DNA of 60,078 bases, the filler included, from Dirinaria sp. TL-2023a (Eukaryota), in assembly GCA_051941275.1 (NCBI GenBank). It is 12 parts of 12 records of this genome, joined end to end, with 100 filler letters (N's around TTAATTAATTAA, not from the genome) between each part and the next. Parts side by side here need not be neighbours in the genome. Positions count along the whole stretch, not along the records: positions 35,266 to 40,163 come from JAVEBF010001757.1; 11 more parts are not named here. One strand, written 5' to 3'. Positions 4,957 to 40,263 of this stretch are shown in pieces. Below the pieces are notes generated by a model that searched no databases, was not told where the DNA came from, and saw only the letters and a program-made list of their open reading frames with translations. A program made the translations under genes and the position numbers. Positions within the stretch are counted from its first letter, which is position 1. Each line of letters starts with the position of its first letter.

Positions 4957-5056
4957 NNNNNNNNNNNNNNNNNNNNNNNNNNNNNNNNNNNNNNNNNNNN
5001 TTAATTAATTAANNNNNNNNNNNNNNNNNNNNNNNNNNNNNNNNNNNNNNNNNNNN
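4957..5056. other. Artificial contig linker
   Basis: N44-TTAATTAATTAA-N44 (stops in all six frames). Confidence 0.99.
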
Positions 5057-10009: not shown

Positions 10010-10109
10010 NNNNNNNNNNNNNNNNNNNNNNNNNNNNNNNNNNNNNNNNNNNNTTAATTAATTAANNNNNNNNNNNNNNNNNNNNNNNNNNNNNNNNNNN
10101 NNNNNNNNN
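10010..10109. other. Artificial contig linker
   Basis: N44-TTAATTAATTAA-N44. Confidence 0.99.
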
Positions 10110-21496: not shown

Positions 21497-24400
21497 TCAT
21501 CGCGCCCATATTGCTACTAGGCTATCAAAATCAAAATCGTTGAGATCTTTCGTCGTGTCGCGAAGCGGAGCGATCGTTGTGAGAAGGATGCCTACTTCGG
21601 AGAGAAGAGTATTGCTCGCTGAAATGTTTTGCAGCTGCTTCTGGAATAACGCTGCTTTATACAGTGCGCGGCAATACTCCCCTCGGTACGCGTATCGATT
21701 CCGGAACGTCTTGAGCGCTTGTTCAAAGAGGATACTAGCACGACTTGAGTCTCTTTCTGAACATGGAAGGGCCCTAGCTTTACTCACTTTGCCGCTTCTA
21801 ACTCGTTTCGCCGCGCATGATGTTCTGCCATTTTAAGACACGCATTCCCAGTTCGGTGATAATCTTTACCCATCGTCGACATGAGAATTTGGAGCGCCCG
21901 TTGATGAGCTTCAAAACTTTCATCAAGCAAATTAAGTTTTGCTTTTACATTGCCAAGCGCGTAAAGAGCATAACCGGGTCCGTAGGCAATTAGTAAGGGT
22001 GAATCGGCCATTGACGCCTGGTACTTACTTAAATGAGTTAGGTTCTAGCCCATACTTTTTGTTTCCCCAGTCAACTGTTTCGGATAGCAATTCCACAGCA
22101 TGTTGCTCTTCTCCTATTGCGGACAGTGAAAAGGCTAGACAAATAGTTCCAAAGTAAGGCCAATAGTCCCCATCAAGGAATTCCTGGTCTTCAAAAGCGA
22201 TGCCCCTAGAGATCTTGCAATTTTCAATTGCCTGTTCGTAATACCCAGTCAGCATTTGAGCAAGTGCGAGCTCGCTGTATGCCAGCGCTCCATATAAGGA
22301 CAGCTTTGGAAGCGTCTTTTCGATTTGCATTCGCTGAACGAAATGTCTTTCAGCGAAATGGATTGCGCGGTCTCCGTCATTTTGTTCGCTGAGTGTAGAT
22401 GCCATGCAGAAGAGTACATCTGCATGGAGCTCTCCCACGGCTTCTGAATGCTGCTCACAGATCTTGAGAGCAGTTTCAAATATTGCTAACGCCTCGTCAA
22501 AGTTTCCACGCTCTTGTAGATACCATCCACCTTGCTGCAGCAAGCCGGAGAACTTTTTAATCGTCTCAGGCATGAGAGTCATATCATGCTGACTATCGAA
22601 TACAGCTTGGAGCTTAACAATGTGTGGCTGTAGTTTTTCGAAGTTCGCAAATAGCTCTGGGTTGTGGTTATAACGATCCTCAGGGTAAGGCCAAGCACAG
22701 GAAAGAATTTGAGTCGCGAGCTCGAATATCTCCTGCAGTCTGTCGTGCTTGAAGCTCAATACAGCAGCATCTTGCACTAACCTATGAATCGAGATCTGTC
22801 CTAATTCCTTGTTGCGCTTAAGTAACGAAGATTTCATTAGGTCTGTACGTGCTTCAATATAAACAGCTTGGCTCGAAAAGAAGGCCACGTGGTCTACATT
22901 TGATATCGCCTGTGTTAGTATACTCTCGTCAAGCTCGTCAGGATCGAGCAGAGCGAGGAGATCGAGCATGTTGTGTGCATCAGAGCCTAGATCGCCAAAG
23001 GCCCACACAGAGGAGAGATCGTGGCCGTACTTGTCATTTTGTCGCGTCAGCGTCGGCTTGTAAAGATCAGTGATGGCGGTGTTCTTATATGTTTCTCGAA
23101 ATTCATGGATTGTCATGTCTCGGCGACGAGTAATTGCAGCTACTTGACTTATCGCAAGAGGAAGGCCTTGAACTCGAGTTGCTAGTGCCAACGCATCTGG
23201 GTCTAAATCACTGATCGCTGCTTGGCCGGTTAATTTCTGTAGGAGTAATGCTGCATCATTAATGGGAAGACCTTGAAGATCAATTGATCTTGTAGCATTC
23301 AAGTAGCTTCTCGTAACAGGATCTCTACTTGTGGCCAGGACACACCCTCTACCGGGGATCGGCCAGTAGTCTCGAAGTAGTTGGGGGTCATCGGCGTTGT
23401 CAAAAACAAGCAGCCACCTCACATCTGGAGAATCTGACATTTCTTCCTCTTCGGACGTAGCATTTGCAGTCTTTCCAGGGTGGGAGAGCCACTCCATGAC
23501 AAGATTGCGAGTGACAACACGGTCTGCGGTATCATTTTTGTCAACAAGCGCTAGCCGAAGGGCGATCTGATGAAAGCGCTCAGCAAGCTTGCCAGCCTCG
23601 TCAGCATTCACCCAAAAGATAGCATCAAAGTGCTGCCGACGAGTAAAAGCGTATTCGATGGTGATTTGTGTCTTTCCCACGCCTCCAAGGCCACTTATGA
23701 CACAGGAATTCAAGAGCTGCGAATCCCCAGGTGAAGATGTAACTGATGAGAAATATGTTTGATCGAGTATGGCGAATAGGTTCTCATGTCCAACAAATTC
23801 AGGGTTTCGGGTATGTGGGTCAAGGAGATAGCATGGGAAAACGGGCTTTTCTTTTACTTTCGCGCTCTCCGATACGCTGGATATTATCTCGAAGCTCGTG
23901 TGGGACAGATCTGTTGAGCCTTTGGTAGCGTTCAGCATACTCAAGTCGGAGATTCGCCGAACGCTGCTTTCTTCATGGTCTGGGTCACACACCGTACTGG
24001 CCCACGCGACCTCCGTGATGGCTTTGGTCGGCGGTGCACTCAAGGAGTCAAATGTTCTCTGTATGCGGTCTTGTTGGGCTACCGCGTTGTCCATCATAAT
24101 TTTGAGTTCAGCGATTCCCATCGGATTGGACCGTAAATCGCAAACTGTGCTATGTTCTGCATCAGCTGGAAGAAGCGTTTCATTCTTCAAATTGGTTTCG
24201 GCAAAATCACGGTCAACTAATAGGTCTCTGCGAGAGGCTCTAAATAGACCGTCACTGATTTTTGTCCTCTTAGTTTCGTAGATGGACGCGATCAGAACAT
24301 CAATACCAAGCTCCTCGAACTTCGCAGAGATGTTAGCGATCGTTGCAGCTTCCGTCTCCGCTTGAGCAAGTAGCAACGGCTTCAGCGCCACACTCGACCG

Positions 24401-24916
24401 AAGTAGCAGGCTAAGCCGTATCCACTTCGATCTTTGCTTATATGTAGCGTGTGGCGTCCCTAAGAACATAATGCCTACTTGCACGCTGATCAACTTCCGC
24501 ACCCTGGGATCATAGTATTGCTCGTGCGAACTGTTAAAAACGCACTTCACGACTACTCCACCGTATCCGTGACAGATAAACAGCAGAGGCCGTTGAGCCA
24601 GCAGTAGATTGTCGCTCTTTTCTACCAGGGCTCCCATCAGATCCGCGCTACGTTGCATTATTGATTGCCATATGGAAACACCGGCGGCCGGCAACGTCAT
24701 GTCGAAAGCCAAAAGCTGCGCACCAGGTGCGATGGAGGGTACGGTGATCTTAAGCCACCGCCAGACATTGGGGAGGTGTTCTGGTGACAACTTCGCCCCT
24801 AGCTCTGGAACAATTATGACGTTGATGGTGCATCGCTTTGGAGGCTGGCTTTGAAGCACGGTGATCCTGTCACTGCGAGCTGTCTGGGCCGGATTCACTG
24901 CAGTCGTTGGAAGCAT
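21497..24916 (-). CDS. Fungal NLR-like protein: SesB-like alpha/beta-hydrolase + NB-ARC + TPR
   Basis: RPLLFICHGYGGVVVK and GIMFLGTPH (SesB-like); RNPEFVG, GLGGVGKT (Walker A), WLLVFDNADD (Walker B), GLPLAI, IHRLVQ; TPR helices; C-terminal FDSLVAIWAR. Two 3' introns, the first with an abnormal acceptor. Confidence 0.9.
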
Positions 24917-25129
24917 TTGAGCAGTGATAAGTGGTAAGTGGTAAGTCAGAAGCAATTGAGTCGCGCTAGGCCAATAATACGCTTATACCCTCCGCCCGAT
25001 GCTGAAAGATTGTGTGTAGAAAAAGAGTATGCTCGCAAGAATCTCTCGACTCTCGACTCTCACTCTGCTTACGAGCCGCCTCGTGTCCAGTAGATCAACA
25101 ATGAATTGGCTAGCGGCGCTGCATCGGAA

Positions 25130-34440: not shown

Positions 34441-35165
34441 TCATAAAAAAGTATACTTATTATCGTAGACCAACTCTCGCATCTTCCGAGCCCTTTCGTG
34501 TAACTCCTCAGCCTCCATGATCTTCCCCTGTCTGTCAAACGTCATTGCTAGATGTTCGACGCTCTCCAACGTGTCGGGATGCTCGACTCCCAGCATCTTC
34601 TCTCTGCCTTCGAGCGCCCGTCGATACATCTTCTCAGCCGCATCATACTTTTTCTGATCCCCAAAAAAACATGCCAAATTATGAGCGCCGCTTAACGTGT
34701 CGGGATGCTCTACTCCCAGCACCTTCTCTCTGCCTTCTAATACCCGTCGATACATCTTCTCAGCCGCATCAAACTTATCTAGATGCCAAAAAACCCGTCC
34801 CAACCCTTGAACCCTGCTTAATGTCTCGGGATGCTCGACCCCTAGCACCTTCTCGCTGCCTTCGAGCGCCCGTCGATACATCTGCTCAGCCGCATCATAC
34901 TTTCCCTGGTACCGAAACAACCTTGCCAAATTTTGAACGCTGCTTAACGTGTTGGGATGCTCAACTCCCAGCATTTTCTCTCTGCCTTCTAGCGCTCGTC
35001 GATATATCTTCTCCGCCGTCTCGTACTTTCCTTGACGCTCAAGCACCATTGCAAAATGCGTGATGGTATTCAATGTGTCAGGATGCTCGACTCCCAGCAC
35101 CTTTTCCCCGCCTTCTAGCACTCGTCGGAGCACCGTCTCGCACTCCTCCCATCGACCTTGCCTAT
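34441..35165 (-). CDS. C-terminal TPR array (42-aa LGVEHPDTL repeats) of a probable NLR-like protein, 5' truncated
   Basis: Exact 126-bp period (tgctcnacncc at 34580, 34706, 34832, 34958, 35084). Frame is open to the contig edge. Confidence 0.88.
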
Positions 35166-35265
35166 NNNNNNNNNNNNNNNNNNNNNNNNNNNNNNNNNNN
35201 NNNNNNNNNTTAATTAATTAANNNNNNNNNNNNNNNNNNNNNNNNNNNNNNNNNNNNNNNNNNNN
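35166..35265. other. Artificial contig linker
   Basis: N44-TTAATTAATTAA-N44. Confidence 0.99.
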
Positions 35266-35624: not shown

Positions 35625-36800
35625 CGCTACGATCCGCCGAGCAAACGAAGAACCTACAGTGAGCCTGCTACAATGGAACTCCGCCGGCAACCACAATGAC
35701 TGCTCGATCACCTGTCAACGGACGGAGGTAGAGGAGACTTGGTGCGGCGGGCAAGGATAAGAGCTTCGAATGCATACACATCGTTGGAGCCTGGGTTGAC
35801 TGGAGAAGAACTACGCTTTGCATTAGGCGCTGGCGTAACCTCGCGCTGCGATCCCCCGAGCAAACAGGGAGCCTACAGTGAGCCTGCTACAATGGACCTT
35901 CGTCAACATCCACAATAATTGCTCAAGCACCTGGCGTTGACCGAGGTAGAGGGGACTGGGTGGGACGGGGAAGGATAAGAGCTTCGAAACCATACACTTC
36001 GTTGGAGGCTGCCTCGCACTGCGATCCGCCGAGCAAAGGAAGAACCTACAGTGAGCCTGCTACAATGGACTCTCGCCAACATCCACAATAACTGCTCAAG
36101 CACCTGCAACCGCGTTGACTGAGGTAGAGGGCCGCGGGGAAGGACAAGAGCTTGGAAAGCATACACTTCCTTGGAGGCTGCCTCGCGCTGCGATCCGCCG
36201 AGCATACGAAGAATCTACAGCGATCCTGCTACAATAGATCTCCGCCAACATCCACAAGGACTGCTAGAGCTAAGTAGAGGGCGGCGGGGAAGGATAAGAT
36301 CTTGGCAAGCATACACTTCGCTGGAGGTTGGGTTGACTGGACACGAACTACGCTTCGCATTGGGTGCTGGGGTTACCTCGCGCTGCGCAAACAGAGCCTA
36401 CAGTGAGCCTGCTACAATGGACCTCCGCCAGCAACCACAATTATTGCTCGAGCCCTCGCGACGGTGTTGATCGAGGTAGAGATGATTCGATGGGACGGAG
36501 AAGAGTGAGAGCTTGGAAGGCATACACTTCGTTGAAGCCTTGGTTAGCTGGACAGAAATCACGCTTGCATTGGGCGCTGGGATTCTTTCGGACTGGAATC
36601 CGCCGAGCAAACGGAGAACCTACAGTGAGCCTGCTACAATGGACCTCTGCCAACCATAATGACTGCCCGAGCTCTTGAGACGACGTTGACTGGGAGACTC
36701 GATGGGACGGCAAAGAATAAGAGCTTGGAAAGCATACACTTCGTGGGAGCCTGGGTTGACTGAAGATGGACTACAACATGGCTTGAGCGCTGGGGTTGCA
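35625..36800 (+). repeat. Six-unit modular tandem repeat (169-222 bp units)
   Basis: Block CCTACAGTGAGCCTGCTACAATGGA at 35653, 35872, 36045, 36214 (variant), 36397 and 36619. Block GAGCTTGGAAAGCATACACTTCG, with variants, at about 35761, 35979, 36148, 36298, 36509 and 36721. Confidence 0.93.
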
Positions 36801-37129: not shown

Positions 37130-38050
37130 TTGCAAGATATCTGCGATATCCACCTATCAGTGACATCGACCCACGATCCCAACATACCTATCTACCTCCC
37201 CCTATCTACGTTTCAGCGATATCAACCTGGGCTACCTATCTATCTACCTCCCTGCCATATGGACCTGCCTCTGCACCTCCGATTCCGACCTGCGATATTT
37301 ATCTATCTGCCTGCGATATCCACCTCCCATATCCAACTACCACGATACTGATCTATTCTGTCAACCTCTCCACCTTCCCATCTACTACTGACATCGAACC
37401 GCGATACCGACATACCTGCCTACCTACCCACCTACCTACCTACCTACCAGCCATACCAACCTGCTTGCCTCTGTACCTCCCATCTACCTCCCTATCTACC
37501 CATCTATGTATCGACCAGCGATATCAACATGGGCTACCTATCTACCGATCTACGTGCAATATCGACCTGCTTGCTACTGCACCTCTGATTCCGATCTAGC
37601 ATATCTATCTCCCTAGCTGCCTGCGATATCCACCCCTTCACCTTCACATCTACCAGCGATATCATCCTGGGATTTCCATCTACCCTGTCTGTCTTTGTAT
37701 CTGCGATTCCTGTCTGCGATCCTTATCTACCTAGGTATCTGCGATATCTATCTCCCGTTCCAGCTATCTATCCACGATACTGATCTATCCTGTCTACCAC
37801 TCTCCCTCCTGGTCTACCCGCGATATCAATTTGTCACATGAAACTCTCGTATTCATCTACTTATCCACGATATCGATGATCTATTCTGCCCATCTATCTA
37901 CCTGCGATTCGAACTTGCGATAGCAAACTCCAATATCTATCTGCGATATCGACCCATGCTATCTAACTCCACCCCTTCTCATCTACATACGATATCGAGC
38001 TCCCACATCCACGTTATCGATCTACGCTAACTATCTCTTTATCTGCGACT
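37130..38050 (+). repeat. Degenerate low-complexity minisatellite built from GCGATATC and TATCTAC/TACC motifs
   Basis: More than 15 CGATAT/CGATAC copies at irregular spacing. G-poor top strand. (TACC)n at about 37415-37448. Confidence 0.8.
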
Positions 38051-38574
38051 CGGATCTTTACGACCCTGGAAACTCAAGTAGGAGAATAGATAACCAAGTC
38101 TGATATAATTGATCTTTTGATAACGATCTTATCGGGACTTTAACCAAGGGAAACCTATCTAATTAAGAGCGGATTTCGAAAATTCGAGGACATGAATAAG
38201 TTCTTGATAAATTCGACGAGGGAATAAAAATTACCCTGGGAAAAACAACGTGTAAACTCTTTACTCAAAAAATTTAAGAAATCTATTTTTTTTTAATTCT
38301 TACTCGATTCAACACCCACAAGGGGCCTATGCGAGATCTATATACTTATATCGGCGGCGCGTCAGCGCTGCGTCGACTCTTTCCTTGTTACGTGCAGTTT
38401 TCTCTATCCATAGTACTAGGAAATCCTTCATGCGAGGACTCTATGGGTCTAAGGATTCGAAGAAAGAGCAGTCGTCTGAAACTGACTGAGTAGATCAGTG
38501 GATAAGATCATGCGTATCGCCGCTGTGACATCAGCGACGTTATCGAGCAGCTTTCTCACATCTGTGATGTTATT

Positions 38575-38779
38575 TGTCAGGGCCTGCACAGCGCTCAATG
38601 ACATATGAGTGCTAGTAGACTAGGACACTAACTATGAAGAAGAAAAGGAAAGAAAATCTATCTACAGAAAGACTCAAATAGGGACCCGAAGCAATATCGA
38701 TCCGAGGGGACGCTGGGCCTGATCATGTGACCTGATCATGTGACCTGATCTAAGGTGCTCCAGGTCTAGGTTCATGACA
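38575..38779. mobile_element. Solo-LTR-like element (205 bp)
   Basis: Perfect TGTCA...TGACA termini, internal 13-bp tandem CCTGATCATGTGA and an abrupt composition change at 38779/38780. No matching target-site duplication. An alternative left end is TGTGACA at 38524. Confidence 0.5.
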
Positions 38780-40163
38780 TCTTTCAGTCTTTTCGTTTCT
38801 GAATTCATTCAATTTTGTACTTCTGCAAGTTTTTTCTAGTGAGACTAACGCGATAAGCTCGAGCTTTGTTCTGAGCAGTTTTAATTTGTGAAGCAGAAAC
38901 ATGCTCGACTTGAAGTCGATGAACTTAATTTTTTAATCTCAAAAGTTGTGAATCTCGTTTGATCGCAGTTTTTCTTTCGATTGAAAGACTGTTTGAGAGA
39001 TTCTTCTCGCGAGACTTTGCAAAAAATTGAAAGTAGTCAATATAATCGTGCTAAGTAGATTCATTCAAAAATGTCGATTTTTCATTCACAAACGAGATGT
39101 TCGTCACATAGCTTTGATTATAAACTCGAGTATCGATCTGCGTTATGTGCTGAGATTGTTTAATCTCGATATATCTTTTTACATAATTCTGTCGTCAGCG
39201 AGAGCTGATTCGAAATTGAGTTGTATTTAAAATGACTGATTATTAATCTTCTTGTCGAGATAACGACGTATAGCATGAACTGTAATATTGTCAAAATATC
39301 TCGAGAAATTCAACACGAATTTGACGATACGATCAAATATTTTCTTCGACAGCGACTCTTCTGAGACACTTTGTTGCATAATAGCATTGCGCAATATTAA
39401 TAAATATTTGACAAATTTAGTTCATCGAAAAAAAAATTCGTTGTTGTCGAGAGAGATTTGTAGCTATCAGAAGTTCTTAGATGAATCGATATCTCAGAAT
39501 GTCTTGTCTGCAAAGATTAAAGTCAACAGATACTGAATATCATCATACAGCAACTTGTCGTGTTGACTGATAAATGCGTCATATCTACGAAAATAAAACA
39601 TCGTCAATAAACGCATCAGTGCGAAGAGATGAGAAATAGTACACAATATTTTTCGAATCACGATTGTTTTTCACTCAACGCTGATCAATTCGATAAATCA
39701 TCTTTCATCTCTCTGAAACGCGTATCAGAAAAATTTCAATATTCTGCAAGCGATTAGCGAAGCTTCTCATCTTTTCACGTAGATTTATTTGATATCGAAG
39801 ATCTCTTTTGTTTTTGTTCTTCTGATTGAGAAAAAAGACGTTAATTCTCGTTTCAGTTCAACAAAAGACGACGATTGCGAAGAAAACTTAAGTTTTGTTA
39901 CGCGAATGAATGAATTGCGCATCGTCGATAATTCAGAACGTAATGTTAAACTAAATCAGTTTTTTCTCGTTAAAAAAATGCTTTTATTTTTTTTTTATTC
40001 ACGATTAGATCTTTTTTTATCAATGTATTTCGTGTCCACTGATGAAGACTTGTTTAACTAGAGAGACGTCGTAAACATTCAGAATGTACTCACGTCGTAT
40101 ACTGCACGTCTATCTTTCTCATCGATCAGATTGTCGATGACTCGAGCAAATTCAGCAAAGTAT
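38780..40163 (-). pseudogene. RIP-inactivated DUF3435 tyrosine recombinase (Starship captain family)
   Basis: Manual minus-strand translation across four intron remnants: FIHSRNKT*VFFAIVVFC*TETRINVFF, DLRYQ|NIEIFL, YRIDQR*VKNNRDSKNIV, HDKLLYDDIQYLLTLIFADK, ITVHAIRRYLDKKIN, SQHITQIDTRVYNQSYVTN, YKIE*IQKRKD*K. Reversing C->T/G->A gives FCWTGARIG, GLRY, HAIRR and GQSY. Confidence 0.85.
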
Positions 40164-40263
40164 NNNNNNNNNNNNNNNNNNNNNNNNNNNNNNNNNNNNN
40201 NNNNNNNTTAATTAATTAANNNNNNNNNNNNNNNNNNNNNNNNNNNNNNNNNNNNNNNNNNNN
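40164..40263. other. Artificial contig linker
   Basis: N44-TTAATTAATTAA-N44. Confidence 0.99.

Follow-up and report, generated by a model that had tools for sequence, protein, structure and literature searches.

The genome of Dirinaria sp. TL-2023a, a lichen-forming ascomycete of the family Caliciaceae (Caliciales, Lecanoromycetes), contains a dead transposon gene, very likely brought to mutational saturation through a RIP-type defence favouring the 5' C of CpC. A CorA protein encoded in the window is closest, among named relatives, to those of Lecanoromycetes, and proteins identical to two frames of the genome are labelled as Dirinaria. The window analysed here, 60,078 nt in length, consists of 12 unrelated contigs of ~5 kb each. 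These are joined by 44 N, a 12-nt linker and another 44 N at positions 4957-5056, 10010-10109, and then every ~5 kb to 55216; genes across the joins are unlinked. The gene relic and its surroundings comprise the following features:

38771..40163, no strand assigned: CC/GG-depleted tract with a single CC left, reaching the end of contig G000:C1757
40036..40037, plus strand: sole remaining CC; on the minus strand, the only Trp codon that is still TGG
38286..38798, no strand assigned: short dispersed repeats abutting the tract, with many CC/GG kept, in pieces of ~75-290 nt, matching L053, L066, L005, L098, L159, L037, and others
38778..39179, minus strand: remnant of the DUF3435 3' exon (tblastn, residues 384-517 of protein P0253), truncated by the short repeats next to it
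39236..39583, minus strand: middle DUF3435 exon (P0253 residues 270-385), several Trp codons changed to TGA
39591..39992, minus strand: more 5' DUF3435 exons (P0253 residues 168-287), including 15 inserted codons that probably represent an intron
40164..40263, no strand assigned: N spacer with 12-nt linker between unrelated contigs, an assembly feature and not biology

The segment 38780-40163 comprises 1384 nt and has a GC content of 0.335. It retains one CC, at position 40036, and no GG, against 37.9 + 39.9 = 77.8 expected from base composition. The near-total loss of these dinucleotides reported in an earlier note, which had put the expectation at ~70, was thereby reproduced. Among 10,000 base shuffles of the tract, the sum of CC and GG had a mean of 77.5 (sd 7.5) and a minimum of 47. 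The run without CC or GG, from the GG at 38769 to the CC at 40036, extends over 1267 nt and is the longest in the window; the next N-free run is 167 nt. The observed/expected ratio (O/E) of CC+GG in the window outside the tract is 0.95. The other dinucleotides of the tract display the following O/E values: 1.04 (CA+TG); 1.90 (CG); 1.00 (CT+AG); 1.57 (TC+GA); and 0.56 (TA). Retention of CA/TG and CG, also claimed previously, is evident from these values. The RIP product and substrate indices of the tract, 0.60 and 1.18, both fail the RIPper limits (product at least 1.1, substrate at most 0.75; PMC6714961), in line with the prediction that standard indices under-call this region.

In contig coordinates, the tract corresponds to G000:C1757:3515-4898. 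This contig is 4898 nt long and ends inside the DUF3435 gene, which is why the tract stops at 40163. The 5' end of the gene lies beyond the contig end; residues 1-235 are present on another copy, L023 (G000:C2347). On its left side, the tract ends sharply where homology to the other copies ceases (38772-38780), and gives way to short dispersed repeats that have kept CC/GG.

These repeats (38286-38798) form a mosaic, the pieces of which occur on many small contigs and which includes a 13-nt tandem unit at 38718-38750. They are far less mutated than the neighbouring gene relic, as would be predicted by a length threshold or by later insertion. The same contig harbours a 169-nt tandem repeat (2.5 copies, 35839-36265) and C-rich microsatellite-like stretches (37405-37500), both with CC kept. 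Elsewhere in the window, an NB-ARC/TPR gene (fungal NLR-like) is located at 22025-24982 on the minus strand, and a separate TPR-repeat frame at 34441-35217, also on the minus strand.

As judged by homology, the tract is the middle part of a dead, truncated DUF3435 tyrosine-recombinase transposon gene on the minus strand. This assignment follows from the PF11917 match of its copy L002 (43.4 bits, cut-off 25.8) and from the exon-by-exon alignment of homologous proteins. No Pfam match was obtained with the tract's own translations in three minus-strand frames. A DNA search of the genome revealed seven matches besides the tract, on six other contigs, with 82-89% identity; the longest of these, L002, is less mutated and 82% identical to the tract. 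Of 18 homologous proteins, 17 carry PF11917, and the named ones originate from lichen fungi and Geoglossum. The minus strand of the tract can be aligned exon by exon with three of them, P0248, P0249, and P0253. The DUF3435 family, to which the element belongs, includes the captains of Starships. The DNA common to intact relatives of the element on different contigs (L070, L072, L077, L078, and L091) is only ~4-5 kb long, at 74-90% identity, which suggests a mobile tyrosine-recombinase element of modest size rather than a giant Starship. The element has possibly moved between lichen-associated fungi.

Comparison with L002 revealed 149 C>T/G>A transitions (71 C>T, 78 G>A), 10 reverse transitions, and seven transversions. 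The changes are substitutions, and the alignment of the tract to its copies stays ungapped. Both strands are mutated, with C>T and G>A interspersed along the tract. Sorted by the 3' base, the C>T fractions are 76/86 (CpC); 43/134 (CpT); 19/125 (CpA); and 11/107 (CpG). Sorted by the 5' base, they are flat, at 0.29-0.39. The 58 isolated CC pairs became TC in 48 cases, TT in nine, AT in one, and CT in none, in agreement with the proposal that mutation strikes the 5' C. Longer C runs alternate (CCC>CTC in 5/9; CCCCCC>TCTCTC), as expected if a changed 3' neighbour makes C a poor target.

An outside polarity was obtained from metagenome loci of the same element; of 23 such loci, 11 that cover the gene were used. 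At sites where four or more of these loci could be compared and 80% or more of them agreed in the dinucleotide, the mutated fractions are 42/49 (CpC); 15/46 (CpT); 5/46 (CpA); and 4/40 (CpG), and the totals are 126 C>T/G>A changes, 12 reverse transitions, and nine transversions. The codon changes suspected from the sequence (TGG to TGA, GGC to GAC, and CCG to TCG) are borne out by the outgroup protein P0253: TGA stands opposite 8/9 of its Trp residues and TAG opposite none, GAC is found opposite Gly four times, and TCG opposite Pro four times. Opposite P0248, 15/19 Gln codons survive. CpA-directed RIP would give the reverse of this pattern, in which Trp is converted to TGA, never to TAG, and Gln is kept.

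The same bias was found in other repeats of the genome. Among 68 overlapping alignment rows of loci, four had no CpC to count, and CpC was the most mutated context in 59 of the remaining 64; the five exceptions are short rows with few transitions or many transversions, from lightly or anciently diverged pairs. Copies of a DDE_1 transposase differ at 28/34, 12/25, and 19/21 CpC sites versus 9/85, 0/49, and 3/40 CpA sites. Reverse-transcriptase loci, 25 of 32 of which were compared, had CpC on top in each of the 12 pairs that reached 300 nt and 75% identity, with weak rows where only 2-4 CpC sites were available. The intact locus L137 and its relative L152 differ at 28/35 CpC and 5/38 CpA sites, with 41 transitions in one direction and no transversions, and the pair L152/L154 at 25/72 CpC versus 3/47 CpA sites. 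The stops inside the 32 reverse-transcriptase matches are 34 TGA, nine TAG, and seven TAA.

For a pooled estimate, 17 non-overlapping pairs out of 122 were retained; pairs with transitions less than four times as numerous as transversions, or with no CC-bearing copy, were excluded. This filter favours mutated pairs and no particular context beyond the requirement for CC. The pooled rates are 390/723 (0.54, CpC); 149/1061 (0.14, CpT); 71/890 (0.08, CpA); and 48/946 (0.05, CpG), with 683 transitions, 60 transversions, and a Fisher p of 9e-97 for CpC versus CpA. The CpC rate is 0.50-0.57 for any 5' base. Alignments of repeat copies are, therefore, dominated by CpC and not by CpA, and the target rank is CpC >> CpT > CpA >= CpG, with no effect of the 5' base. 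The shift away from CpA envisaged in the earlier note holds with regard to CpC as the main target; that note had missed CpT as the second one.

Depletion of CC is also not confined to a single locus. A sample of 72 contigs, chosen by number only and totalling 188,659 nt, is skewed to short contigs and does not give a genome-wide fraction. In this sample, 49 of 591 windows of 300 nt, located on 17 contigs, had a CC+GG O/E of 0.2 or less, and the window histogram was bimodal. None of the 591 windows had a CA+TG O/E of 0.4 or less, the lowest value being 0.51, and none of the 49 depleted windows passed the RIPper thresholds. The affected repeats are of the DUF3435, DDE_1, reverse-transcriptase, and short unclassified types. 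A genome search with the CC-free contig L026 returned only that contig itself and no second copy, and a repeat nature has thus been demonstrated for many but not all depleted windows. Mutation load varies among copies from none to saturation, and adjoining genes are spared. Taken together, C>T/G>A mutation is directional, two-stranded, and common to several unrelated repeat families, while genes and intact relatives are free of it.

Reverse-transcriptase and DUF3435 elements that are unmutated and have long open frames were observed beside mutated relatives (L137, L138, and L020), and some elements are thus recent or escaping. The coexistence of intact copies with mutated relatives (L137, L020) indicates that the defence is leaky or intermittent.

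The loss of CC is not inherent in the element, since whole-locus CC O/E values in the metagenome were 0.87-1.13 in 23/23 loci and the divergence among these loci had no context bias. A positive control for the method was provided by the flank of a DUF3435 element, L078:501-3500, where the same script detected canonical CpA RIP (O/E values: CA 0.08; TA 1.63; CC 1.72). This CpA-type RIP, seen also in L077:1-500, belongs to a different genome, where it adjoins a copy of the DUF3435 element that is intact. One tract on a metagenome contig from another genome, L081:4610-6409, contained six CC/GG against 59.4 expected, with CG at 2.06, CA at 0.82, and a sharp edge. No meaningful Pfam match and no tblastx match to the loci collected here were obtained for this tract. 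It is AT-rich and resembles a later-stage form of the same CC-depletion signature. This single-copy, unpolarised tract suggests that the signature may not be private to the Dirinaria genome.

The survey for C5 cytosine methyltransferases revealed a gene that we take to be RID-like on the basis of its motifs. It is located at L017:62-2662 on the minus strand, at the end of G000:C1379, as an 866-codon open frame with motifs I-VIII intact, and is interrupted by the contig end before the target-recognition region. A search of the assembly did not recover the last exon, which encodes that region. The RID label is also based on protein P0130, which resembles the fungal PDB chain of 1456 aa less closely than DNMT1 chains. 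Of the 120 listed homologs, 18 were aligned; the position just after motif VI is occupied by SG in the C1379 protein and three near relatives, and by RR in ten others. Replacement of RR by SG might be a specificity determinant and is regarded here as a lead only. The difference between SPAH and SDAH in the catalytic loop was dismissed as a determinant, since P0225, a homolog from Teloschistaceae, shares the state of the C1379 protein. An ESM Atlas search with the RID domain returned generic C5 methylases only.

A second methyltransferase gene, L162 (G000:C712), is presumably DNMT5-like, as judged by its motifs. Despite its presence, CpG is mutated less than any other context, and the relics have it in excess. 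DIM-2 was not found with PF00145, degenerate-motif, BAH, or TIGR00675 profile searches, which does not imply its absence from so fragmented an assembly. The BAH search yielded three other proteins, of which one is presumably RSC-like, one presumably SNT2-like, and one an unassigned BAH protein. PF25423 had no match anywhere, not even in the control sequences, and is therefore uninformative.

Given the presence of the RID-like gene, we lean towards RID itself, with a changed preference for the +1 base, as the enzyme responsible. Duplicates would be recognised via homology around the sexual cycle, and the RID-like C5 cytosine methyltransferase would flip and modify the 5' C of CpC. The modified base may then be deaminated or misread, giving T. 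Repeated rounds would use up CpC and afterwards erode CpT and CpA. The chance is about even that a re-specified RID performs CpC-directed RIP as an undescribed lineage trait extending beyond this genome.

Instead of RID, a DIM-2-like heterochromatin methyltransferase active in vegetative growth could methylate CpC in repeats, with mutations following without premeiotic pairing. Dim2 of Zymoseptoria tritici drives mitotic C>T mutation in repeats and methylates CC less than CA (PMC8016269), and Cladonia rangiformis possesses both RID and DIM-2 (PMC12542154). The long life of lichens might also favour mitotic accumulation. We nevertheless consider this explanation unlikely: the four profile and motif searches of the fragmented assembly did not find DIM-2, the other methyltransferase is presumably of the DNMT5-like, CpG-directed kind although CpG is mutated least, and the edge of the tract is sharp and tracks the element boundary. 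The prospect that the repeat mutator of some lichen-forming lineages differs in chemistry or enzyme from RID-type cytosine modification is quite improbable. A lesion of the 3' G at purine-G steps, for example, would yield the order CpC > CpT > CpA >= CpG. If real, such a mutator would have been overlooked since all RIP indices rely on CpA. O6-alkylguanine mutagenesis (COSMIC SBS11) follows the order GG > AG > TG >= CG, which is also the order observed here, independent of the other neighbour, and lesions of C and of G are indistinguishable in double-stranded data. Even so, repeat-targeted O6-methylguanine on the 3' G of 5'-purine-G, or a CpY cytidine deaminase, is highly improbable here, since restriction to repeats, sharp edges, and 86-88% saturation point to enzyme-like targeting, for which the only known precedent in fungi is of the RIP type, and genes are untouched (CC O/E 0.95 in the rest of the window).

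Lichens are exposed to UV, and the tract sits at the end of a contig in a fragmented assembly. Mutation by UV at dipyrimidines, post-mortem deamination, sequencing or assembly error, and intrinsic avoidance of CC are, however, scarcely credible as explanations. TpC, a UV target, is enriched in the tract, the 5' base has no effect, and tandem CC>TT changes are a minor class (9/58), and a UV origin was rejected on these grounds. The ungapped substitutions, the mutation load that varies by copy, and the sparing of neighbouring genes argue against such origins, as does the occurrence of the same element, intact and with normal CC, in other genomes. APOBEC3G-like editing, which gives CC>CT on one strand, was rejected as well, since CC>CT accounts for 0/58 pairs.

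RIP-type mutation of CpC, the reading preferred here, would imply that the sexual cycle is active or recent. Routine tools score the loss of CpA only, and genomes of the CpC type are wrongly scored as RIP-free; recognition of old transposon relics in such lichens needs different criteria. The CpC variant is also a natural specificity mutant for asking whether RID selects and attacks cytosine. To our knowledge, choice of and attack on cytosine by RID have never been demonstrated biochemically. The activity was described as undemonstrated as of 2008 in the available part of PMC2432034. In an analysis of 1,239 genomes, limited to scaffolds >50 kb, RIP-like defences shared a preference for CpA (PMC12543289, available text), from which a saturating variant directed at CpC clearly departs.

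With RIP of Neurospora crassa and other Pezizomycotina, mutation in Dirinaria shares directional C>T/G>A change on both strands, restriction to repeats, sharp edges, unequal mutation of copies, inactivation of transposon genes by stops, and the presence of a putative RID-like gene. The target in Neurospora is CpA, whereas it is CpC and then CpT in the Dirinaria tract; accordingly, Trp codons become TAG in the former and TGA in the latter. The TpA/ApT and (CpA+TpG)/(ApC+GpT) indices do not detect the Dirinaria tract, which displays neither the CpA preference nor the values of both indices that characterise canonical RIP. Since the products are TpC/GpA, TpA falls and GC stalls near 0.33. The process is RIP-like in every testable feature except the CpA target.

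Varied contexts in 49 genomes were reportedly described by Clutterbuck in 2011, with CpC double hits modelled. We found no report of CpC-dominant RIP in a literature search that was thin on subscription papers and supplements. In the available parts of the sources, CpC>TpC is merely one among four theoretical classes (PMC2621366, PMC3017866), or CpC declines in two species with CpA dominant (PMC5737583), or the contexts are CpA or CpG (PMC4943192, PMC4165359, PMC6714961, PMC5555474, PMC7493409, PMC8016269). The term "CPC" in PMC5602860 was set aside as a strain code. RID-associated RIP is of the CpA or CpT type (PMC4352252, PMC12543289, as far as available).

Among Lecanoromycetes, Cladonia rangiformis and Xanthoria resemble Dirinaria in having mutated AT-rich transposon relics (PMC12542154; bioRxiv 10.1101/2025.11.25.690456). 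RIP in these lichens was called by GC content or RIPper, and the dinucleotide context is not given in the available text; the same applies to the context in another lichen study (PMC13535494). The relics of Cladonia have 10-20% GC versus ~33% in Dirinaria (PMC12542154). Dim2-dependent mutation in Z. tritici (PMC8016269) is, as in Dirinaria, a repeat-restricted C>T change that spares CpG, but it is directed to CA and not to CpC, and DIM-2 was not found in the fragmented Dirinaria assembly. Non-canonical RIP-like biases include CpT in Magnaporthe, Botrytis, and Sclerotinia, and CpG in Tuber, Uncinocarpus, and basidiomycetes (PMC4352252, PMC4165359). Dirinaria has in common with them a species-specific shift in the 3' context of the mutated C, and CpT is its second target. 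In the portion of PMC4352252 consulted, CpA, CpT, and CpG signatures are reported from 10 genomes and "CpC" is absent from the main text. CpC is the fourth possible context, and the available parts of PMC4352252 and PMC4165359 do not list it as dominant. The process in Dirinaria is very likely of the known RIP type, in a CpC-targeted form that has no precedent in the literature covered here.
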